Below are positions 20,049-56,431 of a stretch of 64,000 nucleotides of DNA, piece by piece. Position 1 is the stretch's first letter. The number at the start of each line of letters is the position of its first letter. The translations under genes were made by a program, and so were the position numbers. Source of the stretch: a bacterium (GTDB taxonomy: Bacteria > Hinthialibacterota > Hinthialibacteria > Hinthialibacterales > Hinthialibacteraceae); NCBI GenBank assembly GCA_963662285.2, contig CAXXMV010000004.1, positions 32,001 to 96,000 of the forward strand. Direction: 5' to 3'. The notes below the pieces were generated by a model that was not told where the DNA came from, did not search any database, and saw only the letters and a list, made by a program, of their open reading frames with translations.

Positions 20049-21317
20049 ATGAAAAAGTGTTTTAGAGTACTCAGTATTGGGATGTTATGCATCCTGACGG
20101 CATCAACATCATTTGCTCAGATTGGTATTTTTGAAGCGAATGTGGATGTTGATAATGGAAGTTTAGGCGCCGCAGGAAGCGCATCCTACGATCCCGCTAC
20201 GGATATGTATACAATAACCGGCAGCGGTCAGGATACATGGTCTGACGTTGGCAGCAATTTCCACTTTGTTTACCGTGAATGGACCGGAGATTTCGATTTC
20301 CGAGCTGATGTCACTGTAAGCGGCGGTTTGGAGACGCAAGACTGGATTAAATCCATGCTCATGTGCGCTGAAAGTACAGATGGTTGGTCGAACTATATCA
20401 CAACTAGAGTACGTCGTGACGGTCAATACAGTACTCAATGGCGCACTGGCGGCGAAGCTTCTGATGGCAGCACTGCTAGCGGCTTGCGCGTATCTGGACT
20501 GAATCCAGCCCGTCAACGTCTGGTTCGAATCGGCGATACCTTCTCTACCTATTATATGGGCGAAAATGGTGAGTGGGCGCTAATCGATTCAAATGTAGCA
20601 GTGCTATCTGAGACTGTTCTGGTTGGTATGGGCGTTTGCTCTCATGATTTAGGGGAACTAGCCACAGGAACATTCTCTAAAGTTGCTCTGGGCGCTCCTG
20701 TAGACGGTCTCTTCGACCTGACTATTGATGTCGATAATGGCTCGCTTGGCGCCGAAGGCAGCGTTGCCTATGACGCTGGAACTTACACAATTGAAGGCAG
20801 CGGCCAGGATACATGGTCTGACGTTGGCAGTAATTTCCGTTTTGTCTATAAAGAACTCAGTGGTAATTTCGAACTAACAGCCGATGTTGCAGTTGCAGGC
20901 GGTCTGGAAACGCAAGACTGGATTAAATCCATGCTTATGTGCGCTGAAGGATTAGATGGATGGGCGAACTATATCACAACTAGAGTACGTCGTGACGGTC
21001 AATACAGTACTCAATGGCGCACTGGCGGTCAAGCTTCTGATGGCAGCACGGCTAGTGGTCTACGCGTATCTGGTCTGAATCCAGCCCGTCAACGCCTGAC
21101 CCGCAGCGGTGATACTTTCACCACTTCCTATCTGGATGCTAATGGTGACTGGCAAGTACTCGACATTAATGAAGCCCCATTGCATGATCCTGTATTCGTG
21201 GGATTAGGCGTCTGCTCTCATGATTTAGGCGAACTTGCGGTCGGTACCTTTAGCAATATCGAACTGACTATGTCTGGACCTACTTCAGTAGTTGATAACT
21301 GGGAATTAATGCGGTAA
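20049..21317 (+). CDS. Secreted protein with two tandem concanavalin-like (DUF1349-like) beta-sandwich domains and a C-terminal VxxWxxL motif
   Basis: RBS gggagg; signal peptide ending SFA|Q; two 192-aa repeats (GSGQDTWSD...VGxGVCSH); ends TSVVDNWELMR. Confidence 0.8.
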   Translation: MKKCFRVLSIGMLCILTASTSFAQIGIFEANVDVDNGSLGAAGSASYDPATDMYTITGSGQDTWSDVGSNFHFVYREWTGDFDFRADVTVSGGLETQDWIKSMLMCAESTDGWSNYITTRVRRDGQYSTQWRTGGEASDGSTASGLRVSGLNPARQRLVRIGDTFSTYYMGENGEWALIDSNVAVLSETVLVGMGVCSHDLGELATGTFSKVALGAPVDGLFDLTIDVDNGSLGAEGSVAYDAGTYTIEGSGQDTWSDVGSNFRFVYKELSGNFELTADVAVAGGLETQDWIKSMLMCAEGLDGWANYITTRVRRDGQYSTQWRTGGQASDGSTASGLRVSGLNPARQRLTRSGDTFTTSYLDANGDWQVLDINEAPLHDPVFVGLGVCSHDLGELAVGTFSNIELTMSGPTSVVDNWELMR

Positions 21318-21341
21318 TTACATTATTAATCCAGAATTTAT

Positions 21342-21378
21342 AAAACGGCCCGGGATCTATCCCAGGGCCGTTTTTTTA
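21342..21378 (+). terminator. Rho-independent terminator
   Basis: aaaacggccc...gggccgttttttt. Confidence 0.85.
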
Positions 21379-21512
21379 TCCTGAAAACGGCAGTTAGATA
21401 TTGATGACAATAATAAAGCAAAAATCTTCAGTTTTAGTAAACAACCCCCTCTTGAATTCTTACCCAAACTTGGGGGAGAGGGATTTTGAAGATATAAATA
21501 TTTATATTATTT

Positions 21513-23173
21513 GAGTGTAAATTTAAAGGGTTTTTCAGCAAATATAACAATAAGTGTAACTTACGAATAGAGAAGCTCCTCCAAAAGAGGCAAAATACAT
21601 AAAACATCACCAAATGTCTAAATGTATTCATCTCCAAGGAGGAGCCCAAAATGAAAGCGTATGAGATAGAAAGCAGTATAGCAGAAGGCCGCGAAGAATT
21701 GGAGCATCTCTTCGAGTTTGTCATAAAGAATGCGGAGGAGATGGAAGCCCACGAAATGGAAGAATCGATATTCAAGAAGATCCTCCATATCGGCCGTGCA
21801 GGTTTGAAGGCCTATTTTGCCGAAAAGGGAACGGGGAATGTGGGACAAGAAATCACGCGTGAGGATGGCGTTACGCAAAAGAAGGAATCGGGTTTGCGTT
21901 CGCGAACATACACATCCATATTTGGCGAGGTCGCAGTGCCCCGGACATGTTACCGGACCGCTGGAGAGCCTGGGATTTTCCCGTTGGATGAGCAAGTCAA
22001 TTTTCCGGACCGGCGTTATTCGTATTACTTGCAAGAATGGATGAATCTGCTGAGTATAGATCATCCGTTTGAAGAAGGAGCGAAACGTCTGAGCCGTTTT
22101 TTGGGGATCTCCTTGGTGGAGAGTGTCATGGTGTCGGTGGCTCGGGAGAGCACAGGAGATTACGATGCGTATTACGGGCAAAAGACGCCTCCGGCCCCAA
22201 AGGAGGAAGGGGAGATTCATGTAGTGTCCTTTGATGGAAAAGGAGTGCCGATGATCAAATCGGAAGCGGCCAAAATCCAGGCGAAGTTGGGGAAAGGGGA
22301 GAAAAGACAGAAGAAAAAGGAAGCCCTGGTGGGGGTGAGTTACACGATGGACAGGAAGGAGCGGACGGCGGAGGATTTAGCGGAGAAATTGGTTAATCCG
22401 GGAAGGAATCGAGACCGCCAGCCTCAAAAGGAAACCGATGAGAACGAGCCGAAAGGACGGAACATCCGCCGGATGGCCAGCGTGAAGCGCGCCAAAGCGG
22501 ACATCATGAAAGAGATCAAGAAAGATGCCGAACAGCGGAATCCAGACGGGAGTAAACCGCTGGCGGTGTTATTGGACGGGGCGTTGGGATTATGGAATCT
22601 GGCTACCGGCCTGTTTCGTGGCTGGAAAGGTCAAGTGACGTATATTCTGGATATCATTCACGTTCGGGATTATTTGTGGGGTGCGGCCAATGCGCTTCAC
22701 GAGGAAGGAAGCGAATCGGGGCGCACGTGGGTGCAGGAGAGATTGGAGCAAATCTTGAAGGGAGGCGCCGGGTATGTGATAGGAGGCTTGAAGCAAACGA
22801 TCACCAAACGGGGATTGAAAGGAAATAAGCGCCAAGCGTTAGAAAAAGCAATCACCTATTTTGAACGTCATAAAAAGTGGATGCGATACGATGAATATTT
22901 AGCGATGGGAATGCCGGTGGCGACAGGAGTCGTGGAATCGGCCTGCAGTTCCGTGGTCAAGAAACGGATGGAAGGCGAGGGGAAACGCTGGAGCGTGGAT
23001 GGCGCTGAATCGATCTTACTTTTGCGCTCCTTAGAAAAAAGCAATGATTACAATACCTATTGGTCTTTTCATGCTGAACAAGAGCGAAAACGGTTATACG
23101 AAAATCGCTTTAAGTATGCAATAAATATTCCTTTAGCCGATGCGGCATGATACAACGCAAAAAAGTTACACTC
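21513..23173 (+). mobile_element. ISKra4-family insertion sequence, apparently intact
   Basis: Terminal inverted repeats GAGTGTAA[A/C]TTT; 9-bp direct repeat ATATTATTT at 21504-21512 and 23174-23182. Confidence 0.9.
21651..23150 (+). CDS. ISKra4-family DDE transposase
   Basis: SIFGEV, SFDGKGVPM, LLDGA, LDIIHV, ATGVVESAC, GKRWS motifs. Confidence 0.92.
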   Translation: MKAYEIESSIAEGREELEHLFEFVIKNAEEMEAHEMEESIFKKILHIGRAGLKAYFAEKGTGNVGQEITREDGVTQKKESGLRSRTYTSIFGEVAVPRTCYRTAGEPGIFPLDEQVNFPDRRYSYYLQEWMNLLSIDHPFEEGAKRLSRFLGISLVESVMVSVARESTGDYDAYYGQKTPPAPKEEGEIHVVSFDGKGVPMIKSEAAKIQAKLGKGEKRQKKKEALVGVSYTMDRKERTAEDLAEKLVNPGRNRDRQPQKETDENEPKGRNIRRMASVKRAKADIMKEIKKDAEQRNPDGSKPLAVLLDGALGLWNLATGLFRGWKGQVTYILDIIHVRDYLWGAANALHEEGSESGRTWVQERLEQILKGGAGYVIGGLKQTITKRGLKGNKRQALEKAITYFERHKKWMRYDEYLAMGMPVATGVVESACSSVVKKRMEGEGKRWSVDGAESILLLRSLEKSNDYNTYWSFHAEQERKRLYENRFKYAINIPLADAA

Positions 23174-23327
23174 ATATTATTTTGACTTAGTAATACCAAA
23201 TACTGCGATCAAACATTCCTCTCCCAAGACTGGGAGAGGTTAGGAGAGGGTTGATACAAACCACTTCTTCAAGGTAATTGAATACTTAGTAGAAATATAT
23301 GGAATGCGTTGGTAGTTAGAAAACTGG

Positions 23328-24374
23328 TTAAACTTCTTCTTCCGGAGCGAATTCCGGTTTTTTAGGGGTTGGAGTCGCTTGAGCTGATTCTTTTGATTTC
23401 AACTGGCATTCGCGGAATGAGTTTTTCACGTTATCGACCAGGTCTTCGTCAATAGCAATATTGGCCAGCGATAATGCATACAAGGCGGCGCCTACAACCG
23501 CATCCAGTTTGGGAGCGATCACGTTGGCGCCGGGAATGAAATAGTGGATTTTGCGCCGCAGCATTTGGGAGAAATATGAGGTATCGCAGAAAAGCCCTCC
23601 ACTGAGCACCACGTCAGCCCGTTCCGGGAACGATAAACGCTTATGCAATGCGTCGACGCATTTGGCTAAACCATCCGCCTGTCGGTTCAGAATCTCTTCG
23701 GCCAGGGGATCATCTTCGTTGGCGGCTTGTATTACGATTGGAGCAATGGCTGCGATGCGTTCGCGGGTGGCGGAGCTGGAATTGACCCAGCTGATAAAAT
23801 CACCGATGCGCTCAACGCCGGCATAATTGAAAACCTCATCATGGAAATCAGGCTTTTCTTCCATACCGTCGTGATAACGGACTATCATCTTTAAGGCTTC
23901 CAGTCCGATGTGATAACCGCTGCCCTCGTCGGATAGCAGTGGACCGTAGCCGCCGACGCGGCCTTCCATATTTTCTTCGTTGCGTCCATAGACCATAGAA
24001 CCGGTGCCGGCCAGCACAATTATCCCGATTTCGGATAGCGTCCCACCCACCAGCGCGATTTGGGCGTCGCCCATCAGCAGGTAGGATTCCTTGCCGAACA
24101 GATCGTTGAATATTGGTTGCAGGATATCGCGGTCTTGTTGTTGACCGGCGCCCGCCAGACCCAGGCAGACGCCTTTGCACTCTTCCGGCCGGGCGTGAGC
24201 TATACTTAATGCATCATTAAAAAGGCGTTTTATAGTGGATGAAACCTGTCCGGCGCCGATATCGTGATAGTTCAACGACGGTCCTTTGCCGACGTAGACG
24301 ACTTTGCCTTTGTCGGTCATAAGAATGGCGCGGCTATGCGTTCCACCTCCATCAATTCCAAAAACGTAGGGCAT
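23328..24374 (-). CDS. BadF/BadG-type sugar kinase (N-acetylglucosamine/MurNAc kinase-like)
   Basis: GIDGGGT, AGTGS, GGYGPLLSDEGSGY; start placed at MPYVFG. Confidence 0.88.
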   Translation of the reverse strand: MPYVFGIDGGGTHSRAILMTDKGKVVYVGKGPSLNYHDIGAGQVSSTIKRLFNDALSIAHARPEECKGVCLGLAGAGQQQDRDILQPIFNDLFGKESYLLMGDAQIALVGGTLSEIGIIVLAGTGSMVYGRNEENMEGRVGGYGPLLSDEGSGYHIGLEALKMIVRYHDGMEEKPDFHDEVFNYAGVERIGDFISWVNSSSATRERIAAIAPIVIQAANEDDPLAEEILNRQADGLAKCVDALHKRLSFPERADVVLSGGLFCDTSYFSQMLRRKIHYFIPGANVIAPKLDAVVGAALYALSLANIAIDEDLVDNVKNSFRECQLKSKESAQATPTPKKPEFAPEEEV

Positions 24375-24427
24375 AATATTACCTGGATACAATAACATGA
24401 GCGATTTTGAAAACCGCCCTGGTCTAC

Positions 24428-24841
24428 TTATTTTTGTTCGCGAAGTTTTTTATTCGATGTTTGCAATAGTTGGACTTGCAGTTTTAAATCATTCAACTTT
24501 GCTTCATAATCCTCGCGCAGTTGATCCATCTCTTTTTTATGGTCCGCCCGCAGTTGTTTTATTTCATTATCGTATTTTTGGATAATATTAGAAATTACCG
24601 CACCATCTGACTGCGCAGATTGATTTGCTCTGGTCGGCAGTGGTTTGGGCGTTGGCGTCGATAGAGTAATTATAGATAGATCAAGCCCTTTATCGGTAAG
24701 CGGGCCGACTCCACCCTTGGTCATTATCCACCCTACAATCAACAGAGCAACGACGCTGACCAATCCTAAAGTAAATAGAACGTTTCCCCCGTTGGGGGCG
24801 TCGCGATAATTACTACTCTTTTTTTGGGTCCGCTGGCTCAT
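24428..24841 (-). CDS. Hypothetical single-TM protein with C-terminal coiled coil
   Basis: TM helix at residues ~20-40, heptad-rich C-terminus; overlaps the upstream PEGA gene. Confidence 0.7.
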   Translation of the reverse strand: MSQRTQKKSSNYRDAPNGGNVLFTLGLVSVVALLIVGWIMTKGGVGPLTDKGLDLSIITLSTPTPKPLPTRANQSAQSDGAVISNIIQKYDNEIKQLRADHKKEMDQLREDYEAKLNDLKLQVQLLQTSNKKLREQK

Positions 24842-25190
24842 CCTGATGCGCCTCCAAATCCGATGATGGCTCCTTGGTCAAATCAAATGTAAATGAATGC
24901 CGGTCCGTGACATTTGCGGGGATGACGGTAGTCACGAAATCGAAAGGAAACACCAGATAAGCGGGTGAATCTAGATCAATAAATGCTTCCCGCCTGCCGT
25001 AGTCTGGATGATCAAGGGTAAGTTTATGGGCGCCCAGGTAATCGACTTCAAATTCAACCGGGGTGATCCCTTTGGGCTGGTAGTCATAATGCACCGTCGC
25101 CCCGGGGGGGTTGCTTTCCACCCGAACAACCGACGTATAGCATCCCTCAACCAGTAAGACCAAAATTAAAACCAGGAAATGATGTACCAT
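24813..25190 (-). CDS. PEGA-domain lipoprotein
   Basis: Lipobox VEGC; VESNPPGATV...GITP. Confidence 0.8.
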   Translation of the reverse strand: MVHHFLVLILVLLVEGCYTSVVRVESNPPGATVHYDYQPKGITPVEFEVDYLGAHKLTLDHPDYGRREAFIDLDSPAYLVFPFDFVTTVIPANVTDRHSFTFDLTKEPSSDLEAHQDEPADPKKE

Positions 25191-25408
25191 TCAAATCGTC
25201 TCCGTCGCATTTCGTCTCCATTACAGCCGAGAGGTGAGCGAATGTCAATGGATTTTCTTGACTAAATGACATTTATCCATATTTTTCAGTTACTTCAAGA
25301 TAATAATGATAAACTCGATTAAAAGCCAGAGGTTGATCCAAACAATCTTCAAATCAATAGTAATTGGGTGGTTTTGCGGGAGTGGTTTTGAGATACGTGG
25401 ATGATCGC

Positions 25409-25640
25409 ATCAAGGGCTGAGCGCTTTGCGCTCTTGCCCTTGGCGCCCGTCTTTGTGTGGTGGATTTTTATTATATTCGGGTAGTTGTTATCAACCCTCA
25501 CCTAACCTCTCCCAATCTTGGAAGAGGGATGTTGCCCCCATCGTAGGGTGGAATCATCATCGGGCAACCATGAAGGATTGCCCCTACGGGATTCGGGATA
25601 TCCCCCATCGCGTAGGGTGGGTCGGCCGTATCGACCCACC
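25409..25640. repeat. Composite REP cluster (families D, C, B, A) downstream of the NLR-like gene
   Basis: D 25409-25448, C 25489-25528, B 25561-25588, A 25611-25640. Confidence 0.8.
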
Positions 25641-25684
25641 GAAAAACCACCCAATCGAAACAAAAACCCCTCACCCCAAAGTAA

Positions 25685-28962: not shown

Positions 28963-30759
28963 TTAATAAATCGCCCAATCGTTGACATCCATGTCAGAAG
29001 AGACGAATGGTCCGGCGTTGAAATTCTGTGATACTTCTTCCTCAGTTAGCGCTCTGCTGTATACAGCCACTAAATGGAACTGACCCAACCAGGCGCGTTC
29101 TGATGCGATTTCGTTGCCCAGACCAAATTTATAGGTATCGTCCCAGGTCGTAAAATCACCATTTACGAACTCGGTTGGAGAACTGCCTTCGAGGAGAATT
29201 TCCTGCCATACATTGTTGATATAGGCCGCCGCCATCCATTCGATTTCGCGCGTGAAGACGATGTGGGTCAATGCTTCGGTCAAAGTTCCCCGGTGGGTGT
29301 TGACCGAGACTACCTGGTTTGGATTAGATACATCCATCATGGCGCGGTATCGCATTTCAAAGCGGTCGCCTCCTGCGCTGTAGCGCCCTTGTCCCATAGT
29401 GAAATTCCGGTCTACAGAATCAATAGAACAGGTAATGATCCGGGCTGTGCCATTCTGGGTCAGGTCGGAAGTCTTGATCCAGGCTTCCACGGTAATCTCG
29501 TTCGACTCACGGCACGCTTCGATAATCTTGGTCGCTGTACCGGGGCTTTCAATGTGGTTGACGCCAGTGGTTTCCAGGTATCCGTTTTCCCAGACGGCCC
29601 GTGTTTCGTCCGCGATAATCAAATCGAGTGGTTCGCCGACTTCGGATACGTCATGAACCACGTTGCCGTTTCCTTCATCGAAGGTGTATAAAACCAACAA
29701 GCCGTCTGTGACCCGGTCGCCTCCGGTGATGTCCAGGAGTGGGATGGTTTTGGGTCCGAGAATATTGACGCTTTCCACGCAGACGCCGCTCCATAGGGCC
29801 AGATCGGCTGGTTCGGCGGGTGACGAGACCTGGTAAGTCAGGGTTGTTTCGCCGATGGGTAAATTGGAAAGATTCCAGGAAATAAGCGATCCGTTGGCTG
29901 TTCCGTTGTTGCTGATGTTGGAAATGGTCCAACCATCGGGAACAGTCTCTTGGATTGTGGCGGTCGAGCGATCGCTCCCGGCAACGAATACCTTGATGGT
30001 TACGTCGATTGAGTCGCCTTTTTTAAATGATTGTTGTGAAAGTATGCGTTGAGCCACAGGCGGCGGCGATACGAATTCGACATGGGTTGCTTCGACTTCG
30101 CCAATTTCTTCGTCATTGGCGCCACTGCCGACCGCGATGCCGAAGGCTGCTGTATCGGATGACCATTGTATGACCCGGTTATCAGCGATGAACCATTGTT
30201 CGCCGTCCGGTGAAAATTCGCCGAAGAAGACGTCGACAGGTTCGATACGCGTTACTCTGAACCAAAGGCCTTCGCCAGTGTCTTCGATGGGATTTCCTTC
30301 TGAATCGAACAGTTGGGTAGAGACGTTGCCGCCTGCGCCAATCCTGGTGCGGAACAGGGCGTTGACTGATTCGCCCACCACTCCACCGAACTGCACCGAG
30401 TAGAAGTTAGATTCTGAGTCAGCGCCGGATTCGCGGATCATCAGTGCGCAGGGTCCCCAGACCGGGTAGAGTTTGGCTTGCAGGGTCCAGCTGCCGGTTT
30501 TTTCGGTATACAGATAGTATCCCTCGTCGCCGAACATATTGTATTCATGCTCGACGCGTCCTCCGTAGGAGCCGTTGCCCAACACCCGGTAGAGGGCGTC
30601 ATCTCCGGCGCCTTCCAAATGCGCTTCACCATCTAAATGAGAGTCGTTTTCATTGATCCAATCCACTGCTTGATCAAACATCCCTACTTGGGCGTGAGCG
30701 GGAAAAGCGTTAAATCCGATAGACAACAAGAGGCTCAAAAAAATTATGGATCGTTTCAC
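28963..30759 (-). CDS. Secreted protein: ConA-like domain, DUF11-like Ig domain, LamG-like domain and C-terminal VxxWxxY motif
   Basis: Signal peptide ending AHA|Q; GLLVLYTFDEG, TVEAWIK, VAVYSRALTEEEVSQNF; ends DVNDWAIY. Confidence 0.82.
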   Translation of the reverse strand: MKRSIIFLSLLLSIGFNAFPAHAQVGMFDQAVDWINENDSHLDGEAHLEGAGDDALYRVLGNGSYGGRVEHEYNMFGDEGYYLYTEKTGSWTLQAKLYPVWGPCALMIRESGADSESNFYSVQFGGVVGESVNALFRTRIGAGGNVSTQLFDSEGNPIEDTGEGLWFRVTRIEPVDVFFGEFSPDGEQWFIADNRVIQWSSDTAAFGIAVGSGANDEEIGEVEATHVEFVSPPPVAQRILSQQSFKKGDSIDVTIKVFVAGSDRSTATIQETVPDGWTISNISNNGTANGSLISWNLSNLPIGETTLTYQVSSPAEPADLALWSGVCVESVNILGPKTIPLLDITGGDRVTDGLLVLYTFDEGNGNVVHDVSEVGEPLDLIIADETRAVWENGYLETTGVNHIESPGTATKIIEACRESNEITVEAWIKTSDLTQNGTARIITCSIDSVDRNFTMGQGRYSAGGDRFEMRYRAMMDVSNPNQVVSVNTHRGTLTEALTHIVFTREIEWMAAAYINNVWQEILLEGSSPTEFVNGDFTTWDDTYKFGLGNEIASERAWLGQFHLVAVYSRALTEEEVSQNFNAGPFVSSDMDVNDWAIY

Positions 30760-42982: not shown

Positions 42983-43543
42983 ATGAAGTCAGAGCGGGCA
43001 TTCACCTTAATTGAATTACTTATCGTTGTGGCGATTATCGGGATTTTGGCGGCTATCGCGGTGCCGAATTTCCTGAACGCGCAAATCCGGGCCAAGGTAT
43101 CGAAAACCGAAGCGGAGATGAGTTCTTATGTAACTGCAGCGGAAATGTACCGGCTGGATAACAACGATTATCATCCGCACAACCATACTCCTTGGCAGAA
43201 TAAGTATCTGACCACGCCGATTGCTTATTTCGCTTCCGTTCCCAGAGATATTTTTGAAAAAGAGAATATCAGCAACGCCTGGACTTTGAAATATGGAGAA
43301 TATCATCTGGAACGGATTTATTATCCGGATGGCAGTCTCTGGTTGGATCCACGGCTTCGGGTGCCCAACAACCCGGCAGTTATGCAGCGGGGATTAAAAA
43401 ATAAGCCCTACGCCTATGAACTGTGGAGCGTGGGTCCTAATGGCGTACTCGATTTCAATGTGAATGGGATTGTTGGTTTCACTTTTTATATGGCGAGCAA
43501 TGGTATGACCAGCATCGGCGATCTGGTATGGATCCGACCATGA
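42983..43543 (+). CDS. Prepilin-type N-terminal cleavage/methylation protein (GspG-like pseudopilin)
   Basis: A|FTLIELLIVVAIIGILAAIAVPNF; LTTPIAY; WSVGPNG. Confidence 0.9.
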   Translation: MKSERAFTLIELLIVVAIIGILAAIAVPNFLNAQIRAKVSKTEAEMSSYVTAAEMYRLDNNDYHPHNHTPWQNKYLTTPIAYFASVPRDIFEKENISNAWTLKYGEYHLERIYYPDGSLWLDPRLRVPNNPAVMQRGLKNKPYAYELWSVGPNGVLDFNVNGIVGFTFYMASNGMTSIGDLVWIRP

Positions 43544-45472: not shown

Positions 45473-46321
45473 ATGATTGTTTACAAATGTTTGAAACCGT
45501 TGTTATGGTTGAGTTGTCTGCTTTTTGGATTGGTTGGAATAGGGTATTCTCAAGATTTTGGTCCGGTGGATACCAATACTTACGTAGTAAAGTTTATTGA
45601 TCCAGCCGGCCCGATGCCTGAGATTGGCGGCGATTTCGATACGGGCTGGGCGGCTAATTTAAATGATGGAACAAACTGGTTGATTTATACCGATCCCGAA
45701 AACGATCAAGATCCAGTCAATGGTCCACGATCCGATGATATGCACTTTTACGCCGGGATTGTTGATGGCGATACCCCCCGGTTATATGTCGGATTGATGG
45801 GAAACGGTTTCACGCCCGGCATCGCTGAGGGCGCGCCAACCGAAAATGATGTGGTTGGATGGTGGGGCAGCGCTCTTTATGAGTTTCTTATTTTGCAGAA
45901 TTACCCCGATGATCCACGCAACAAAATCGTTTTTGGAGCGGATGGCCATTATGCGGATTATTTGAGAAATCCCAATGAACCGCCGGAAGTCCAAAATCTA
46001 ACTAATGTGGAATTCAATGTCATTGCAGGCGACGATTTTTATGCGGTCGAGTTTGCCTTCGATTTGGACAGCATGGCTTTTATCGAACTTGACGATCCTG
46101 ACGATACGGGTATCACCTGGCTGCGCGTCATAGCAAGTATTCAAGGAAGCGGCGCTCCATTGATCGTCTGGCCGGATGGTGATTTTAACGGTAATGTGAA
46201 TTATATTACTCATGGATCAACCGGATGGGATCACATGGGTTGGTGGGATGTTACGACCGAGCGTAGTAATCCGGTCAGATTCGAAGCTGCAACGAGCGTT
46301 GATAGTTGGGAAATATTCTAA
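45473..46321 (+). CDS. Secreted acidic protein (possibly CBM9/DOMON-like) with C-terminal VxxWxxF motif
   Basis: RBS aggagagg before MIVYK; signal peptide; YAVEFAF; ends TSVDSWEIF. Confidence 0.7.
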   Translation: MIVYKCLKPLLWLSCLLFGLVGIGYSQDFGPVDTNTYVVKFIDPAGPMPEIGGDFDTGWAANLNDGTNWLIYTDPENDQDPVNGPRSDDMHFYAGIVDGDTPRLYVGLMGNGFTPGIAEGAPTENDVVGWWGSALYEFLILQNYPDDPRNKIVFGADGHYADYLRNPNEPPEVQNLTNVEFNVIAGDDFYAVEFAFDLDSMAFIELDDPDDTGITWLRVIASIQGSGAPLIVWPDGDFNGNVNYITHGSTGWDHMGWWDVTTERSNPVRFEAATSVDSWEIF

Positions 46322-48151: not shown

Positions 48152-48208
48152 GGTTTGTATTAGAAATAAGTGGTTTTGGTGGGTTGGTGAGGCGTGACCC
48201 ACCCTACC

Positions 48209-49105
48209 TTACAGTAGGTTTTGGTATGCCAGCCATAGGCAGCGGAAGTATTTCATTATCATTACCGGGTCGGGGCTGGTGTGGTGTAGTTCTGCGAGGC
48301 AGTATCCGTCGAAGCCGGTTTCGGTCAGTCTTTTTAAGAGATGGCGGTAGGGATAATTTTCATCGCATAGGTCGCGCATGTGGATTGAGAAGATTTTGTC
48401 TTTGACCAGGTTGAAATTATAATCGAAGCCTTCGCCTTCGAGGTCCTGTCCGTTGGAGTTCCAGCATACTCCGGCGTTGGGGTGATCGGCGGCGTCCATT
48501 ATCTTTTTTATATTGGGTAATAAACAGGTTTCGCTGCCATGAACTTCCAGGCGGATCTGGATGCCGTAGTCTGCTCCGAAGGCGCCGACTTCGCGCAGCG
48601 ATTTACCGATCTGCTCCAGGGTTTTTTCGCGGGGGACGTCTTTGGGGAAGCCGTTGGGGCGGACCTTTATGCCGGTGGCGCCGACATCGTGGGCCAGGAT
48701 TATGTATTCTTTGGTATCTTCAATCTTTTTTCTTAACTCGCTCTGGTCGGCGGTGTGATAGTCGTAGGCGCTGCCGAGTCCCATTAATTCTACTGGTGAA
48801 TCCTTGAAGCGTTTTTTGACTTCAGCGCGTTGTGGTTTGGTCAGGTTCAGTTCAACTTTATGGGCGTGGGTGGCGCGTAATTCAACTCCCTGAATTTTCG
48901 CCTGGGAGCAGGTATCGATTATGGTTTCGATATCCATGTCTTTAGCGAGGTTATAGGTGACAATGCCGACTTTCATCTTTGAAGGCTTGGAAAAAACGTC
49001 GCCCTTTTTTATTTTTTGCGAGGCTTGAGCCGATGCGCCCAGCAGTCCAATGGTTCCCAGTGCGGCGCCAGTGCTCCCCAACATTTGTCTGCGATTCAGT
49101 TTCAT
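48209..49105 (-). CDS. Tat-exported sugar phosphate isomerase/epimerase (AP endonuclease 2 TIM barrel)
   Basis: NRRQML Tat motif; GVELR, LEVHG, IHMRD, GFDGYCLAE. Confidence 0.88.
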   Translation of the reverse strand: MKLNRRQMLGSTGAALGTIGLLGASAQASQKIKKGDVFSKPSKMKVGIVTYNLAKDMDIETIIDTCSQAKIQGVELRATHAHKVELNLTKPQRAEVKKRFKDSPVELMGLGSAYDYHTADQSELRKKIEDTKEYIILAHDVGATGIKVRPNGFPKDVPREKTLEQIGKSLREVGAFGADYGIQIRLEVHGSETCLLPNIKKIMDAADHPNAGVCWNSNGQDLEGEGFDYNFNLVKDKIFSIHMRDLCDENYPYRHLLKRLTETGFDGYCLAELHHTSPDPVMIMKYFRCLWLAYQNLL

Positions 49106-49147
49106 AACGTTTCTCCTTGATAATCGTCAGTTGATTGAAGCGTTTGA

Positions 49148-49236
49148 TTCCTCCCCCAAGCCTGGGGGAGGTTAGGAGGGGGTTGTTTTGTCGAAACGCA
49201 ACCCCCCTCTAACTCCCCCCAGGCTTGGGGGGAGAA
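49148..49236. repeat. Inverted family-C doublet forming a long hairpin
   Basis: cctcccccaagcctgggggaggttaggagggggttg ... caacccccctctaactccccccaggcttggggggag. Confidence 0.8.
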
Positions 49237-49380
49237 TACTATTATCAATACTTTGTATCAAGCATAGTTTTTATATTAACACTTAATCTAGCTAAACAGT
49301 TATAAATAATTATCGTTAACGTGATCTGAGATTATTCTACATGAATTATCCCTAAATAATAAAGGGATGAGTGGTGATGA

Positions 49381-50241
49381 TTATGTAACCATTTCGAAGG
49401 GAATATTGCGGATAGCTATGGGCAGGGGGGATTGTTCGAGGGAAGGGAAGGCGTTCATGATTCCGTCGAAATGAGATAAGACTTGTTGATCCAAACTATT
49501 TGATTCATTTGATGAATTGTCTAACTCAGGCATTTCGTCTGGAAGTTCCATGATTATGCTGCCTTCGCGGTATGGTTGGAAGATATAGCGCATAAAACGT
49601 TCTTTGCCTTCAATCACGCTTTTTTGCTGTAAGTTGACGGGAATTTCTAATAGAAGGTCTTCATATAAATCAGGTCTTTCATTTCTGGCGCGGCGGTATT
49701 GCAGGAGGCAGACGCCGATTTGATGCTTCCTGTCATGGTCGTAGATGTAAATTCGGCTGTCAGGATATTTTTTTAGAAACTGTTGCGCCGCGTTGGTATT
49801 AAATGCTATGGTCTTGATCCGTTCAGCGCCCAAGCGGCGGGATCGGGATAGTTTAATGAATAGCGTCCTGAGTAGTGGATAGGCGGTAATAGGAAATATA
49901 ACGAATAGCGCTAAGGGGGCTAGATATGAAAACAGCAAGTTCTGGTGGTAGGAAAAGCGCAGCAGGAAGGCGATGGCGATGTGCAGCATGAAGAGTATGG
50001 CGACGATCTGTTTGATGTCCCACATTATTGTCCGGCGTATTGTTACATCCCATATCGTGCGCCGCAGTATTGCGAAAGATAAGGCGAACCAGACCAGCGC
50101 GGCGCCTACTTCGAGAATCCAGAGATATGGCGCTAATTCATGTAGGGTTCCGGTCATTGCGAGGAGGACCAATAACATGACCAGCATGATCTCGATGAAG
50201 GTGAAGGCGTGGTTATGGGGGGATGGTTTTAGTAGGATCAT
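49381..50241 (-). CDS. Hypothetical polytopic membrane protein with prepilin-like N-terminus
   Basis: HA|FTFIEIMLV; three further hydrophobic segments; soluble C-terminal domain. Confidence 0.6.
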   Translation of the reverse strand: MILLKPSPHNHAFTFIEIMLVMLLVLLAMTGTLHELAPYLWILEVGAALVWFALSFAILRRTIWDVTIRRTIMWDIKQIVAILFMLHIAIAFLLRFSYHQNLLFSYLAPLALFVIFPITAYPLLRTLFIKLSRSRRLGAERIKTIAFNTNAAQQFLKKYPDSRIYIYDHDRKHQIGVCLLQYRRARNERPDLYEDLLLEIPVNLQQKSVIEGKERFMRYIFQPYREGSIIMELPDEMPELDNSSNESNSLDQQVLSHFDGIMNAFPSLEQSPLPIAIRNIPFEMVT

Positions 50242-50429
50242 GGTTTTTGTTTTTTGTTATTCGATGTATCTTTTTAAGTAAGAGTATTGTTATATTTCCC
50301 CTCACCCTAGCCCTCTCCCGGGGGGAGAGGGAATTTTGTTGTGCGACGTTTATTGTTTGAAATAGTATTATTATGAACTCATCTTCAAAACGAACGATGT
50401 TGTTGGTTGATAGTAACTCGGAATTGTGA

Positions 50430-51776
50430 TTAAGCACGGATATCAAGCCCGCGGGCGTTGATGGTTTTTTGATTATCATGAATTGGCTGTAGGGTCCGGG
50501 GGACTTCGCCGACATTCACTCCGATTGATTTGATATCGAATCCCTTGTCCTGCAATGACGATTTTAGCTCATCCAGGGCTGACTGGATGAATTGCTGAAC
50601 CTCTGGATTGGTTACTACAATGTTAAGCGATATACGGGGATGATCCCATTGCATGGAGATGTGCATAGGGCCGAGGTTGGATAGATCAAGCCGTAAATCT
50701 ATGGCGCCGTTTTTTTTCTTTTTATCCCTGGGAGTGTAGCGTAGTTCAAGTTGGCGCTCTTCTTTATTATCCATATATGGAATCTGGACGAAAACGGGGA
50801 ATGCAGTTTCGCCGCTTTGCGGCGGAAGGTTGTGCATGGCTTGGGCGATTAGCGACTCGTGCAGAGTTTTAACATCTTGAAACAGGCTGGCGAATGCCGC
50901 TGCGTGGGGTGATAGATCGAAGAGCGGTTGCAGGGTTAGCAATAGCGAGAGCAGTTGTACGATGGATTCGCCGAAGGTTGTGATATCCATGCCTGGATTC
51001 TGCAAAAGAAGGGCTTCGGGAGAAGCCAGAGCGGCGCGGAGAAAATCTTCCAGTTCTTTTTCCTGCTCAGGATCAGTTTGATCGTGCATGGGAAGCATGG
51101 TCTGCCGCATGGCGCTATGAACTTCTCTAAGCCGCCGGCGTTGAGATGCATCCAGAATGGCGTCGCCTTCATCATCAGAATCGGCATCCAATTTTTTTTC
51201 CAGAGTTTTTAGTTTAGTTAGAACGTTGTTGGTGGTTGTAGCGATTTCCGGTTTGGGCGCGAACATGTGGGTTAACATGGCAACGATGGGGGGGCTGGTG
51301 GCAATACCCCGGCTGAACAGAAATGATAAGGCCGCAATGTTGCCGCCCGACAGTTGAGGTAAGAGATTAGCCAGGTCTTTTAAGGCGGTTTGATCCAGAG
51401 GGATTCCGGCTTGCAGGAATGCTTGAGCGAGTATCTGGGTATTGGAACCGCTGACGCCCAGGTTGGCCAGAACGGCGCCCAGGGAGCGTGAAGCCGCTGT
51501 GGATGCGGCGGATGTAGATGGATCAGCCGAACGCCCTTGTTGTTCAAGAACCAGCTTGCCATCGACCAGCCGGGCCAGCACGGCGTCACCGGATTTCAGG
51601 TTGGCGCCTTGCATATCCAGGGTGAAAGAGCGGCCCTGGATCAGCAGCGCCATCTTACCACCGGTTGATTGGGCGAGAGTCCCCTGTTGCGGACCTTGCT
51701 TTAACAGAGCGGACAGCCCTGAATTGAGGGCCTGCTGAGTAATGATCTGCGCTTGTGATGCGATTGGATCAACCAT
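50430..51776 (-). CDS. fliK: Flagellar hook-length control protein FliK-like
   Basis: C-terminal FliK domain (LDLSNLGPM...LDELKSSLQDKGF) and terminal GLDIRA. Confidence 0.75.
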   Translation of the reverse strand: MVDPIASQAQIITQQALNSGLSALLKQGPQQGTLAQSTGGKMALLIQGRSFTLDMQGANLKSGDAVLARLVDGKLVLEQQGRSADPSTSAASTAASRSLGAVLANLGVSGSNTQILAQAFLQAGIPLDQTALKDLANLLPQLSGGNIAALSFLFSRGIATSPPIVAMLTHMFAPKPEIATTTNNVLTKLKTLEKKLDADSDDEGDAILDASQRRRLREVHSAMRQTMLPMHDQTDPEQEKELEDFLRAALASPEALLLQNPGMDITTFGESIVQLLSLLLTLQPLFDLSPHAAAFASLFQDVKTLHESLIAQAMHNLPPQSGETAFPVFVQIPYMDNKEERQLELRYTPRDKKKKNGAIDLRLDLSNLGPMHISMQWDHPRISLNIVVTNPEVQQFIQSALDELKSSLQDKGFDIKSIGVNVGEVPRTLQPIHDNQKTINARGLDIRA

Positions 51777-51892
51777 GATTTTAGTGACTCTCAGAAAACT
51801 CGGCGTTATAAACAGTTATTCTTTTATAATCCTCAGTCATTATCGTTATGACCATATTATATTGTCGGACGGAATTTGGCGATGTTAACCGC

Positions 51893-51931
51893 AAAAAAAA
51901 AGTCCCCTTGAGCAAAACTCAGGGGGACTTT
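51893..51931 (-). terminator. Rho-independent terminator
   Basis: A-run followed by agtccccttgag-caaaa-ctcagggggact. Confidence 0.85.
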
Positions 51932-51954
51932 GGATTATTCTGGTATGGATTGGC

Positions 51955-52911
51955 TTATCCCAACCATTTTTTGGCGTGAGCCACGTTATAACGGGTGTCT
52001 TCGATAAATTTGTCTTTACGGCCGCTTTCTTCGATGCAGTACCATTTGTCGTAACCGATATCTTTGCATGATTTGGCGACTCTGCCCCAATCGATATCCG
52101 AGTTGGGAGAGTCAAAGCGGGTTACGTCTTTGCCATTGTCTTTCAGGTGAATTTCGCAGATGCGGTCGTTGCCCAGCAGCTTGATTTCGCCGGGGACGTC
52201 GTAACCATTGCTCCATGAATTGGCGATATCATAGTAAACCTGTACTATTGGAGAACCGACCCGCTCGATAATTTCCAGGTTTTGTTTGGCGGTGATAGTG
52301 TTTTCGAGACCGATAGCCACGCCAGCATCTTCAGCGCGCGGTGCGATTTGCCTTAATACCTCAACCACGCGGGTTATTTTGCTGGAATCCAGTTCATACT
52401 CTTTGAATTGACCATCGCTGATGTTACGTGTTTTTCCCATGGCGTCTTTGGCTTTGAGGTCGCCATTACCGAAGAAAGCGGTCAGAATGTTCTTGGCGCC
52501 CAATGCGGCGGCGGCTTCGATGGCGTCAATAACATAAACAGCTGACTGAGGTTCAGTGGCCAGTGGAATACTGTTGAGGATGCTTCCGGCGGCTACTGAG
52601 TGGATGGTGAAATCGTATTTTTTGCATAATTCTTTGTATTTATCCCGGACTGATTTTTCACGCAGGGGCGCGTTATCCGGAGAAGTGGCGACGCTGGCTT
52701 GCATGCCGCGTAAATGAGCTTCTACCGCGCGGGGGATGACTTCTGGTCGGCAGTTACCGCCGCGATTGTTTTCATCCCTGACATTCCAGTCGCACATGCC
52801 AATTTTGAAATCTGATTTGGATTCAGAACTCCAGGCGTTTGCTCCAAGCAATCCGAAGGCGGTGAGACCGAATCCGGCGGTGCGTAAAAAGTCTCGTCTT
52901 TCAAGCGTCAT
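51955..52911 (-). CDS. Tat-exported sugar phosphate isomerase/epimerase (AP endonuclease 2 TIM barrel)
   Basis: ERRDFL Tat motif; GLEN, YYDIAN, IHLKD, YCIEE. Confidence 0.9.
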   Translation of the reverse strand: MTLERRDFLRTAGFGLTAFGLLGANAWSSESKSDFKIGMCDWNVRDENNRGGNCRPEVIPRAVEAHLRGMQASVATSPDNAPLREKSVRDKYKELCKKYDFTIHSVAAGSILNSIPLATEPQSAVYVIDAIEAAAALGAKNILTAFFGNGDLKAKDAMGKTRNISDGQFKEYELDSSKITRVVEVLRQIAPRAEDAGVAIGLENTITAKQNLEIIERVGSPIVQVYYDIANSWSNGYDVPGEIKLLGNDRICEIHLKDNGKDVTRFDSPNSDIDWGRVAKSCKDIGYDKWYCIEESGRKDKFIEDTRYNVAHAKKWLG

Positions 52912-53203
52912 GATACCAAACTCCTTATTTTATAAAAATTATTCATAACTAAAGTAATTATCAGAATCATGTTTATTTCAATATAATGGGTATTATTTAT
53001 GGTAATGTAAAGAGGAAACAGGATTATAGATGTTGCTGCGTGTATGCCGGGAATGAAAGCCATTATTGAGACATTGATCCATGATTTAACCTTCATGTCA
53101 TATTAAACGCATTAATATTAGCAGATTATTATGGGATGATGTTCTAGGGGCTAGAGTTATGGGCATGATGCGTCTAAAATTGCCTCTGAAATATAGTATC
53201 AGC

Positions 53204-53280
53204 CGGGGCGTAGCGCAGTCTGGTAGCGTACCTGAATGGGGTTCAGGTGGTCGATGGTTCGAATCCATTCGCCCCGACCA
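53204..53280 (+). tRNA. tRNA-Pro(GGG)
   Basis: CGGGGCG acceptor stem pairs with CGCCCCG; anticodon loop ATGGGGT; GGTTCGAATCC T-loop; encoded CCA. Confidence 0.97.
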
Positions 53281-53437
53281 TTTCTAACTTTAACCTTCCC
53301 AGTGATTTACGGAAACGCTTAAACTCGACCATTTCACTCAATTACTCCTCAAAAATCCCAAATCGTGCAATTCATGCAATTTTCTTTCTAAGCGCCTGTA
53401 GAATTTAGAATTATGACATTCTTTTTGGGAGTATTTA

Positions 53438-53575
53438 CGAGTTCCGCTCCGATTGCCAAGCCCGGATATCCTCATCAATAAAGGCCGTGACTTTTTAACG
53501 GTAAAACATAATCAACCGCTTCCATTGATTCCCATGATAATTACGCTCGGTGATGGACTGAGGCGAATGCCCAAT
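53438..53575 (-). pseudogene. C-terminal remnant of a tyrosine recombinase/integrase
   Basis: Minus-strand translation IGHSPQSITERNY...FYR*KV... resembles the LGH-x5-T-x2-Y catalytic box; internal stop; cut off by the IS at 53577. Confidence 0.5.
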
Positions 53576-53576
53576 A

Positions 53577-54315
53577 TCAGACCTCCTGAGCTCACCCGTG
53601 GTTTGCGCGGGATTTTGTTAGGATACTGGTTGGAAGGATAATCATCCAGAGATTGAGGGAATCTCCAGTGCGTGAGGTAGTTAAAAAAATGCCGCAGACC
53701 TTATTGCCTTTATTCACATCAGGCGAAGGATTCATGTCCTAGTTGATCTCCTATCAAAAAAAAGATGGATCGGTATACTCCTTTCATGCCGGATTACCGG
53801 TTTTCAGTCATGGGGAAACCGACCTGAAAAGTTTCCGCATGTTCACCAGTCAGCTGACGGTCAGTGGAGTGTGCCGCCAAGTTGACATCGTTAGAGCCTT
53901 TGGCATCAGCGTCATCAGTATGAAGCGATGGGTCAAGAAATACCGCGAGGAAGGCCCGGAATTATTCTTCAAAACTCCGCACCGACTCAGCGAACAATTG
54001 CTCAATGCGATTAAAATGATCGTCTATCGGGCGGAGACGGCCATGGCGATGATTGTGCGAACGCAATTGGCCCGAAGCGACGATGCCCGCTCATTGATCC
54101 GGGAAATATTAGCGGCGGATGCGGATATCATTCCGGATGAGGAAAACAAAACCTTAACGGTGCAGTTGCACCATTTGACCAACCACCTATCGGATCAAGC
54201 CGCCCGCAACTTCGCAGCTAATCTCAACGCCGCAGAAACCATCTACCCCGGCGCGGACTTGCGACTAATCTACAAACTGGTATCGGATGAAATTCCACCA
54301 GATCAGGAAGTCTGA
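53577..54315 (+). mobile_element. Internally deleted IS remnant (739 bp)
   Basis: Terminal inverted repeats TCAGAC[C/T]TCCTGA[G/T]CT; frame from ATG 53689 (MPQTLLPLF...*LISYQ) carries an HTH N-terminus joined to a transposase-like C-terminus (AIKMIVYRAET...IYPG). Confidence 0.7.
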
Positions 54316-54397
54316 AATTATACTTGCATTCTCCACACCCTCACCCTGTACTCCTCATTTCTAACTTTTTTTTATTCGATTTTTTGCCGGTGCATCA

Positions 54398-56431
54398 TTA
54401 ATAGACGCGCCAGTTGGAAACGTTGGTAGTAATCGGACCCGTTAGTTTATAGATCGTCCATTGCGAGGCGTCTAGCGTTTCTAATAAGATTAATAATGAA
54501 TGTGAATCAGCGGGGAAAATGCCCTGAATTGTATATCCATCCACGGCTTGAGCGATATCAATAGGGCCGCTTGAGGTATACCAGGTTAAACGATCCGCGC
54601 TCGAAACGCTTTCATGAACTACAATGAATTCATCTTCACTGCAGGAAAGTATATTATTGCCAAAAACTTTTATCTTCGTATTACCGGAAAACAATGGGAT
54701 GGTTGAGAATCCATCCTGTAAAACTATAAGTTCACCCAAAATCGGTTTAAGCGCGGATCCCTGTAGTGGGTCGCCCCAATTCACGAAATCCGTTACCTTG
54801 TTTGCCTGGCTATCTGGATTGTATAAGTTAAGTTCGTCTAGCATTCCATAAACATCCCGGTTTATATCGTTTGGACCGGATGGATCCCCCCAATAATTGT
54901 GTTGAAAGTCAGCCACTTTTTGTGATTCCATGAATACGCCGAAATTAACATTATTATAGATATCGCTTTGGTTTACATTGACTGTTCCCTGGGTTGATAT
55001 AATGACTCCAGCATTTTTACATTCAGTAATTAGAAGGCTGTCACCGGTAAAAGAATGTTGCTCGACAATTTGAATCCCATTGACTTCTGAGTTTTTGATG
55101 GAGGAACGTAACATATCGGTACGACCCATTCCCAATAACACTAGGCTTACTGATTGGTCGTTCGTAAATATGCAGTCTTGAATAGTCGTGGTTTCCGGCG
55201 TACTGGATTGCGATACCACGGAGGTGATATTGTTATCAAATCGACAGTTTTTAATCGTTGCGGAACGATCCAGATAGATTCCGTTACCGCACAAATAGAT
55301 ATTGCAATGATCGACAGGGATGGCGCTGTGCAGTTCCAAAACTCCATGAGTATTTTGACCTCCAGCCCCACAGCGGAAGACTGCATTTGTAACCGAGCCA
55401 CTGCTTCCTTCATTGTATACAACATGCGACCATTGCATCCATTCCGCTTTTGTCTGGTCTCCATCACCATTTGTATCGCCCGCGATTTCGTCGTCTTGAA
55501 GCGAAGTGAAAACAATCTTTTCCGTATCGGAACCGTTTATATGCAGTTCGTCGTTTACAGCAATTCCAAAGACGGATTTAATTTGGATTCCAGGCTGAAA
55601 GACGACTCGCACATTATCATTGGTTTTATCCTCATCGCCAACGTTCAAAGACCATGAGTTATAAAGAAGAATGCCGAGATTGGGGACGTCGCCCGATTGC
55701 GTGAAAGTTCCACTAACTTCTATGACGTCCCAGTGATTATTTTGCAGGGTCAGGTTGGTAAAAGTAGATGTGATAAGGTTATTGGGGTAGGCGGCCATAG
55801 AAATAGCGCTGTTGGTTTTGCAGTTTTCTATCGTACAATTGCTTATATGACTGTTTGTTGTATCTCCAAATTGTATGCCGTGTCCGTAATTTTCTCGAAA
55901 TTGTAAATTGTTTAATACTCCGTCACCGGCGAGATACACTCCGGACGTAGCGCTCAATTCAAAGATGGAATCCTCTACTGTGATGCTGCCCATATTGTAA
56001 ATCATTCCCGGAACGAACTGTCCCCCTCCACCGTAGCGGAAGACGGCGTGGGTTATTGTCCCCTGGCTTCCGGGTTGGAATAACAAATAACTCCATTCAC
56101 CCCTTTGAGGCGTATCGCCCTGTCCTTCGATTCGCTCACCAATCGTATCGTTCCAACTCGTGAAAATGACTGGATTGTCGCTAGATCCTTGGATGTTTAA
56201 AGTACCCTGTATTTCGAAACCAGTCATTTTTATTATGGCGCCTGCTTGAATGGTCAACGTTTTCCCTTCAGGTACCAGAATCCCTCCATGATAGGTACCG
56301 GCAGTCAACGGTCCGCTGATTCCATCAGGATTGCCGTCATAAACGGCTCCACCGATTGTTGTATAAGCGACGGCTTGTTGAGTGAAGAAAAAAAGGGCGA
56401 GTAATAAAAAAACCAGGAAGAAACGATTCAT
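54398..56431 (-). CDS. Secreted right-handed parallel beta-helix protein with C-terminal VxxWxxY motif
   Basis: Signal peptide ending AVA|Y; LTIQAGAIIK, GSSDNPVIFTS, NYWGDPSGP; ends TTNVSNWRVY. Confidence 0.85.
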   Translation of the reverse strand: MNRFFLVFLLLALFFFTQQAVAYTTIGGAVYDGNPDGISGPLTAGTYHGGILVPEGKTLTIQAGAIIKMTGFEIQGTLNIQGSSDNPVIFTSWNDTIGERIEGQGDTPQRGEWSYLLFQPGSQGTITHAVFRYGGGGQFVPGMIYNMGSITVEDSIFELSATSGVYLAGDGVLNNLQFRENYGHGIQFGDTTNSHISNCTIENCKTNSAISMAAYPNNLITSTFTNLTLQNNHWDVIEVSGTFTQSGDVPNLGILLYNSWSLNVGDEDKTNDNVRVVFQPGIQIKSVFGIAVNDELHINGSDTEKIVFTSLQDDEIAGDTNGDGDQTKAEWMQWSHVVYNEGSSGSVTNAVFRCGAGGQNTHGVLELHSAIPVDHCNIYLCGNGIYLDRSATIKNCRFDNNITSVVSQSSTPETTTIQDCIFTNDQSVSLVLLGMGRTDMLRSSIKNSEVNGIQIVEQHSFTGDSLLITECKNAGVIISTQGTVNVNQSDIYNNVNFGVFMESQKVADFQHNYWGDPSGPNDINRDVYGMLDELNLYNPDSQANKVTDFVNWGDPLQGSALKPILGELIVLQDGFSTIPLFSGNTKIKVFGNNILSCSEDEFIVVHESVSSADRLTWYTSSGPIDIAQAVDGYTIQGIFPADSHSLLILLETLDASQWTIYKLTGPITTNVSNWRVY

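Follow-up and report, generated by a model that had tools for sequence, protein, structure and literature searches.

A 64,000-nucleotide stretch of DNA from a member of the Hinthialibacterota (assembly GCA_963662285.2, contig CAXXMV010000004.1, positions 32,001 to 96,000, designated G000:C4:32001-96000 here and hereafter called the window) encodes four exported proteins of different domain composition that end in almost the same few residues around a tryptophan. This raises the question of whether the shared tail is a C-terminal sorting or anchoring signal and, if so, what might read it. A preliminary description of the window had proposed a lineage-specific signal, perhaps acting by beta-strand addition, with many more copies per genome. 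Analysis of the whole assembly (G000; 7.29 Mb, 92.5% complete) and of related genomes supports the view that exported proteins across the lineage carry the tail as a modular C-terminal signal, which is not part of the passenger fold. Protein homologues assigned to 'Candidatus Hinthialibacter' (52% identity) agree with a placement in the Hinthialibacterota (OLB16).

The C-terminal tail and its cargo

Open reading frames (ORFs) were called in six frames by our own procedure, giving 5,911 kept ORFs and 14,780 shadow ORFs that served as a chance control. An iterated 12-position profile, at a score of at least 8, matched 191 kept ORFs and one shadow ORF, and these counts exclude a chance origin of the tail; the expectation of many further copies was borne out. 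Within the window, only the four tail genes had a profile score above 0. The search pattern suggested earlier, V.[DNSE]W.[ILVM][YFM].?$, finds real tails (76 kept ORFs, no shadow ORF) but is too narrow, catching 76 of the 191.

With positions numbered from the tryptophan (-5, -4, -3 and -1 before it, +2 and +3 after it), the nine-residue consensus is [TV]-x-[VI]-x-[DNE]-W-x-[LIM]-[YFH] at the extreme C-terminus. Position -5, which belongs to the motif, was Thr in 120 of the 191 tails (63%) and Thr, Ser, Asp, Asn or Glu in 147. Gly, Ser or Ala occupied -4 in 99 tails, Val, Ile or Leu occupied -3 in 185, and Asp, Asn or Glu occupied -1 in 139. The central residue was Trp in 174 and Trp, Phe or Tyr in 190, followed by Leu, Ile, Met or Val at +2 (180 tails) and Tyr, Phe or His at +3 (175 tails). 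His, Phe and a one-residue extension were common: the stop came directly after +3 in 152 tails, after one residue in 38 and after two residues in 1. Thus 190 of the 191 tails have at most one extra residue, and only five internal look-alikes were found.

Exported-looking proteins, as recognized by a home-made heuristic signal-peptide rule, made up 166 of the 189 tail proteins of at least 100 amino acids but 1,265 of the remaining 4,888, an odds ratio of 20.7 (p = 9e-69), so the suspected enrichment among proteins with signal peptides held under this rule. The tail marks approximately one eighth of the exported proteins of the genome. A twin-arginine leader was seen on a single tail protein. 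Two or more transmembrane helices were predicted in 0 of 188 tail proteins versus 595 other proteins, and a lipobox-like match occurred in 2 of 188, which look like false calls. Absence of the tail from inner-membrane proteins and lipoproteins had been remarked earlier within the window.

The passengers fell into 92 sequence clusters, 72 of them singletons. Pfam searches of 49 of the 191 tail proteins identified CBM9, LamG, CotH/LTD, S8, S9, S15, reprolysin, LRR, WD40, beta-helix, DUF3160, solute-binding and MtrC-like cytochrome domains and no barrel family, while 21 of the 49 had no match at 1e-5. CotH, S8, reprolysin, LRR, LamG, CBM9 and MtrC-like cytochromes are typical surface proteins. 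The cytochrome has nine hemes (L056:17456-19267, G000 C6:1171106) and may be a surface electron-transfer protein that lacks a lipoprotein anchor. LivJ-like solute-binding domains (Peripla_BP_6) were also found among the tail proteins (L047, L049, L062); these are normally periplasmic and would be odd cargo if the tail serves surface display.

An AlphaFold model of the first tail protein of the window, based on a 15-row alignment, showed two confident beta-sandwiches, which Foldseek matched to LamG and GH43 beta-sandwiches. Residues 413-422 had a per-residue confidence (pLDDT) below 50, although Trp418 within them does not vary in the alignment. CotH orthologues differ in what precedes the tail: some have Pro/Thr spacers of 7 to about 20 residues there, others an entire additional domain. 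These two observations support the view that the tail is not an integral strand of each domain. Elsewhere, orthologues conserve the Trp even where their linkers have diverged, and close paralogues occur both with and without the tail. A model of the tail alone (45-row alignment) had no secondary structure and a pTM of 0.18 and was uninformative, and querying the ESM Atlas with the final 25 residues returned a single match at 0.78, too weak to use. The slot after the CotH domain holds the tail in members of the phylum, and in seven relatives (P0240-P0242, P0244, P0246-P0248) a FlgD-type C-terminal domain (CTD) belonging to type IX secretion (T9SS) starts there. After CBM9, the same slot holds the tail, a T9SS CTD, a PEP-CTERM segment (P0401) or dockerin-like ends, depending on the homologue. 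The tail thus occupies the site of other bacteria's surface-sorting signals.

That position also bears on whether the tail acts in quality control or as something like a beta-signal, recognized by barrels of the beta-barrel assembly machinery (BAM) or translocation and assembly module (TAM) type or by tail-specific periplasmic proteases. The terminal aromatic residue is shared with barrel beta-signals, and the genome has true barrels that end in x-F. As the cargo are not barrels, the spacing of V, W, L and Y is unlike the alternating beta-signal, and AlphaFold places a short helix or coil there, in a slot that belongs to surface sorting, we consider this explanation very improbable.

In the window, the four C-terminal ends were confirmed in the sequence; two of the genes lie on the minus strand, which had not been stated previously (Table 1). 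All four proteins have leaders of the basic-hydrophobic-AxA type characteristic of Sec export, judged by eye and by our heuristic. The domain assignments made earlier held for the two ConA-like domains (DUF1349), for LamG together with a weak prealbumin-like Ig match, and for the beta-helix, but the protein at 45473-46321, which had been called CBM9-like, had no Pfam match. An ORF of 499 amino acids encoding a transposase-like protein (21651-23150) directly follows the first tail gene.

Table 1. Tail genes, their C-terminal tails and a pilin gene in the window
Feature	Position	Strand	Basis
Exported protein, two DUF1349/ConA-like beta-sandwiches, 422 amino acids, tail at end	20049..21317	+	Sequence, Pfam, AlphaFold, Foldseek
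Tail SVVDNWELMR, the form with one extra residue; Trp418 shared by all 15 orthologues	21285..21314	+	Sequence, alignment
Exported protein, Ig-like and LamG domains, 598 amino acids, tail at end	28963..30759	-	Sequence, Pfam
Tail MDVNDWAIY	28966..28992	-	Sequence
GspG-like pilin, 1 of 94 in the genome; not directly adjacent to a tail gene	42983..43543	+	Genome family linked to tail genes
Exported protein without Pfam family, 282 amino acids, tail at end	45473..46321	+	Sequence, Pfam
Tail TSVDSWEIF	46292..46318	+	Sequence
Exported right-handed beta-helix, 677 amino acids, tail at end	54398..56431	-	Sequence, Pfam
Tail TNVSNWRVY	54401..54427	-	Sequence

A second C-terminal domain family was observed on at least 10 large exported proteins of the genome. 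It comprises about 150 amino acids after Pro/Thr linkers, ends in '[YW]ID.[LM]E[IV][YF].L.PG..YPG.LF', and has no Pfam match (G000 C8:1017932-1054799, C1:452724, C1:931141, C2:1037707 and C3:75861; L064, L066). Similar ends occur on C25 proteins of L085, and this may be another sorting or anchoring domain.

Distribution across phyla

At the genome level, the back-translated tail pattern was compared with a reversed control, and a genome was scored as enriched at no less than twice the control and at least 5 above it. For the 35 Hinthialibacterota genomes and 32 genomes outside the phylum, the DNA pattern also admits Lys at -1 and Trp for the stop, which raises the background on both sides. The tail was enriched in 32 of the 35 Hinthialibacterota genomes, failing in G001 (1 versus 4), G027 (6 versus 2) and G028 (9 versus 7). 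In 75 Sumerlaeota genomes, W-x-[LIMF]-Y-stop was found 1,567 times versus 815 in the control, and was above control in 61 genomes and clearly so in 34. Five apparent negatives carry a form one residue longer (45 versus 9 in G077, and 23 versus 10, 17 versus 6, 14 versus 5 and 24 versus 14 in the others), which reads N-[AS]-[AV]-R-[DN]-W-x-[LI]-Y-E. Such lineage-specific variants are fixed genome-wide. In 32 genomes of other groups that bear C25 proteases, the pattern was at background in 31 and borderline in one (10 versus 5).

In Poribacteria, a longer tail, [AS]-V-x-P-x-x-K-L-x-x-x-W-[GA], was present in all 31 sampled genomes, with 6-103 copies versus 0-1 in the control. Intermediate tails and 'TWGxIK' ends were found on CBM9 homologues of unknown origin. 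From their slot and appearance, the Poribacteria and 'TWGxIK' tails may be homologous to that of the Hinthialibacterota. The tail is lineage-wide in Hinthialibacterota but, contrary to the earlier description, is not limited to a single lineage: it is also found in Sumerlaeota, with related tails in Poribacteria. The Poribacteria tail continues as [AS]VxPxxKLxxxW[GA]xxK (L226-L235) and has no NCBIfam model; these bacteria also have a divergent SprA-like ORF (L237:5208-11783) and CTD-bearing PorU. In the basal genomes G001 and G028 (L030, L039, L044), dockerin-like C-terminal domains that end near a Trp were seen on exported proteins, a short C25 protein among them.

Candidate machinery

A C25 protease (PF01364) was found in all 35 Hinthialibacterota genomes, typically as paralogues of about 1,830 and 1,260 amino acids, and 73 of the 75 Sumerlaeota genomes gave a C25 profile match; the PorU-like form usually has two paralogues per genome. 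Both G000 copies (C2:500515-504318 and C8:485880-491375) have signal peptides. Their best PDB match is PorU (6ZA2), to which the catalytic His and Cys align, and their C-termini consist of CARDB domains, with neither a CTD nor the tail. His789 and Cys828 were invariant in the 35 aligned short paralogues. In a quick IQ-TREE analysis of 112 C25 cores (midpoint root, SH-aLRT support only), 30 rows of Hinthialibacterota/Sumerlaeota type grouped in a single clade with an SH-aLRT of 97, separate from the PorU sequences that bear a CTD. None of the 30 carries a CTD, and one extra copy in G023 falls outside the clade. The analysis thus shows a modular tail, restricted to soluble proteins that are exported, whose occurrence in both phyla goes together with that of a CTD-less PorU-like clade that keeps the His and Cys. 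Two supposed exceptions were discarded: Sumerlaeota as holders of the protease without a tail (G077, G076, G083 and G074 have variant W-x-[LI]-Y-E tails, though the case is weak for G080), and G001 as a genome with neither, since it has a member of the C25 clade and, next to a pilin gene, a variant tail.

Neither T9SS CTDs on cargo nor SprA was detected. TIGR04183 had no match in the genome, its controls being silent; T9SS CTD models did not match the tail proteins, and PF13860 gave one match, to a 231-amino acid protein that is not cargo. The translocon SprA (PF14349) was found in 0 of 35 genomes of the phylum, though a very divergent barrel could escape this model; positive controls gave 1e-49 in G053 and G064, weak matches in Poribacteria and 0 of 2 in Sumerlaeota. 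A profile from three SprA sequences matched only a 39-amino acid stretch, a C-terminal repeat in a BlaR1/M56-type protein (G000 C6:798775-802209, L240), which was rejected as a candidate. For PorV, PF19572 had no match in the genome. A PorV-like barrel at C3:330152 was considered as a universal reader of the tail and rejected, as it was not found in families f2 and f3. Regular-expression searches of the genome found no true PEP-CTERM or LPXTG sequences, and all 8 dockerin-motif proteins of the genome lack the tail.

That SprA and CTDs were not found, and that the first half of the tail resembles CTD linkers, would suit a tail without function, left over from a T9SS CTD since lost and multiplied as genes were duplicated. 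It is carried by 92 unrelated clusters in one genome, however, its Trp is conserved next to a drifting linker, and its variants are fixed lineage by lineage, so that such an origin is hardly credible.

The genome encodes 8 secretins and at least four clusters like those for type II secretion (T2SS). Lipid A genes lie beside bamA by inspection, and a bamA-like gene is split into ORFs of 403 and 341 amino acids (G000 C1:992456-994686) by a frameshift or assembly error. There are 94 GspG-like pilin genes, whose products share the C-terminal motif 'Y..SNG..S.GDI' and occur also in Sumerlaeota loci (L173), and these often form operon-like pairs with tail genes. Their same-strand neighbours included 20 tail genes and 31 other exported genes, against bases of 191 and 1,191 (odds ratio 4.4, p = 4e-6), and their opposite-strand neighbours included 3 and 30, respectively. 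Local shuffles at three block sizes reached 20 tail neighbours in 0 of 500 cases (null 8-9). This adjacency, the abundance of secretins and pilins, and the single twin-arginine leader would fit a tail that targets proteins to a T2SS, with the pilins as cargo-specific pilus subunits or adaptors and the cargo released or displayed on the pilus without a sortase. Only about 10% of tail genes have a pilin neighbour, however, and the link is mixed in other genomes (6 of 28 sampled tail genes in G003 and 0 of 19 in G004, counts that stand without a baseline). Co-location may also reflect shared carbohydrate-use loci, and known T2SS signals are conformational. Targeting of this kind is distinctly unlikely in our estimation.

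The mechanism that we favour, with a probability of roughly 0.4, is that the tail is a minimal T9SS-derived signal, which the two PorU-clade proteases cleave and conjugate once the protein has been exported by way of a secretin. We infer its recognition, its cutting, the acceptor and the export route as follows. Proteins would be exported by Sec, rarely by Tat, and the folded cargo would then cross the outer membrane, most likely via a secretin system, a route favoured because no SprA translocon was found. The protease might hold the docked W-x-[LIM]-[YFH] end while cutting the [T/N]-x-[VI]-x-[DN] half behind position -5. The carboxyl group so freed could be joined to an amine of a surface glycan or glycolipid, as PorU does with anionic lipopolysaccharide (A-LPS), or the protein could simply be released. 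The attachment half of type IX secretion would thereby have been kept without the translocon, and the CTD of 70-80 residues would have shrunk to eight or nine.

This mechanism draws on the likeness of the first half of the tail to published PorU cut sites, T/[GSA][VLI]xD. In the available portions of the literature, cuts are given as X/(GSA)(VLI), for example followed by xD, with Thr, Asp, Glu or Asn at the modified ends (PMC4560394); as Ser, Thr, Asn or Asp before the cut (P1) and Gly, Ser or Ala after it, with low specificity (PMC5445135); and as a consensus of PT/GI in Prevotella intermedia, whose CTDs have 40-55 residues (PMC11969387). The [GSA][VIL] pair was present at -4/-3 in 95 of 191 tails, a fit in about half. 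In five related Sumerlaeota genomes, 13 of 15 tails have Asn at -5, another known P1 residue of PorU.

Several observations weigh against cleavage by a PorU-like pair. PorU cleavage is described as sequence-independent in the part of PMC4804311 that was available, and the likeness to its cut sites may therefore mean little. Val at -5, in 31 of 179 seed tails, and Pro at -4, in 24 of 191, are both poor fits to known PorU preferences, and Ala is at -3 in 9 of 15 Sumerlaeota variant tails. In 40 tails from G003 and G004, chosen by a pattern that fixes -3, Val was at -5 in 15 and Pro at -4 in 10. The exchange of Thr and Val at -5 points less to a P1 residue than to the shape of a beta-strand, and the CTD linkers of 21 homologues, scored on the first five positions of the tail, were mixed, only some being alike. 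Both G000 paralogues fall below the cut-off of the PorU model NF033707 (232 and 193 versus 420 bits), and the counterpart of PorU Arg722 is shifted by one position in 29 of 35 short paralogues and absent from the long one. The PorV model NF033709 gave weak matches in 29 of 35 genomes, none over the cut-off, and was absent in 6 tail-positive genomes. No conserved secretion genes were found beside the protease genes among the matches listed for 22 + 21 loci; the conserved neighbours were argC, TPR and glycosyltransferase genes only, and nothing ties tail and protease directly. C25 proteases also occur in many phyla without the tail, as in the 31 outside genomes at background, and G001, G027 and G028 have the protease and few tails by pattern. 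Finally, Hinthialibacterota and Sumerlaeota are related and are not independent samples of the co-occurrence.

The strand-like alternation of beta-branched Thr or Val at -5 with Val or Ile at -3 would also suit a peptide that is never cut, which would dock non-covalently, through a beta-strand, Trp and Tyr anchors and its free carboxyl terminus, to a receptor or scaffold at the surface or in the periplasm and so hold the cargo on the cell, in the manner of a minimal dockerin or a PDZ-type ligand. The strict C-terminal position agrees with this, as do the dockerin-like ends closing in a Trp in G001 and G028 and a conserved cohesin/dockerin scaffold gene beside a FadL-like barrel gene in family f1. 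Nevertheless, no multi-repeat receptor was found among the C-terminal families of exported proteins, the barrel of that unit was not found in tail-bearing families f2 and f3, and it would leave unexplained why both phyla keep the CTD-less PorU pair. Docking of an uncleaved tail is possible but on balance unlikely. The two-gene unit itself (L063:5248-9304, G000 C3:327247-331306; L214-L223) encodes a cohesin/dockerin/Pro-Thr scaffold followed by a FadL/PorV-like barrel.

A wider form of the PorU-clade mechanism would unite the short Trp tails of Hinthialibacterota and Sumerlaeota, the A-V-x-P-x-x-K-L-x-x-x-W-[GA] tail of Poribacteria and perhaps 'TWGxIK' in one signal family, read by a heterodimeric PorU-clade transpeptidase without a T9SS translocon and anchoring secretin-exported proteins, including the multiheme cytochrome. 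We put this forward tentatively and regard it as doubtful. If it is true, it would be a previously undescribed sorting pathway that combines export of type II with attachment of type IX, and would supply a tag of nine residues for protein ligation.

Comparison with known systems

A match to an already described sorting signal, which would have told against novelty, was not found in Pfam, NCBIfam or the literature: the tail and the related short W-tails have no Pfam or NCBIfam model, and no paper describing the tail was found in a search whose coverage excluded most subscription journals and supplements. The words 'secretion' and 'C-terminal' are absent from the main text of the paper naming the phylum (PMC9324843), and by term counts the available text of the myxosortase preprint (10.1101/2023.06.07.544157) mentions neither these phyla nor type IX. 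The tail offers a simple rule for predicting the surface and secreted proteome of two uncultured phyla, in which some 40% of the cargo sampled fall in no Pfam family. Should the PorU pair be its reader, the type IX attachment module can work apart from its translocon, with a linear peptide replacing a folded domain; this would bear on the origin of type IX secretion and give a new sortase-tag pair that is testable on purified proteins without culturing.

The T9SS (type A CTD TIGR04183/PF18962, FlgD_ig-type PF13860; PorU NF033707, 6ZA2) resembles the present system in its Sec leader, its varied cargo with a flexible linker leading to a C-terminal signal, the same slot after shared domains, and a PorU-like C25 protease with a His/Cys dyad in nearly every genome. 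It differs in that its signal is a folded domain of 40-80 residues with motifs B, D and E, compared with 9 residues in the tail, and in that the tail genome has no SprA or CTD matches and PorV only under the cut-off. The C25 pair shares with PorU the fold and the catalytic His and Cys, and by analogy might cleave and form an amide conjugate, but it forms its own clade, ends in CARDB domains, scores under the PorU cut-off and has no CTD of its own. The short CTDs of Prevotella intermedia, as reported in the available part of PMC11969387, show that a T9SS signal can shrink (to 40-55 amino acids) with PT/GI kept at the cut; they have a three-stranded fold that binds PorV in a complete T9SS, and no Trp tail.

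The LPXTG/sortase, PEP-CTERM/exosortase, GlyGly-CTERM/rhombosortase and MYXO-CTERM systems likewise place a short C-terminal tag on unrelated exported proteins, of which a genome may have dozens to hundreds. The tail, unlike these tripartite signals, has no transmembrane helix or basic cluster and stops within 4-5 residues of the Trp. Dockerin-cohesin pairs are similar as modular C-terminal docking units on carbohydrate-related proteins, and dockerin-like ends occupy the same slot elsewhere, but the tail has no calcium-binding repeats and is too short for a duplicated loop-helix. The BAM beta-signal shares the terminal aromatic residue, but the tail is not on barrels and its spacing differs. 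The tail thus works like a sortase-type C-terminal signal, yet it fits neither T9SS cargo, because it has no CTD fold and its genome no detected SprA, nor the tripartite signals, because it has no transmembrane helix.

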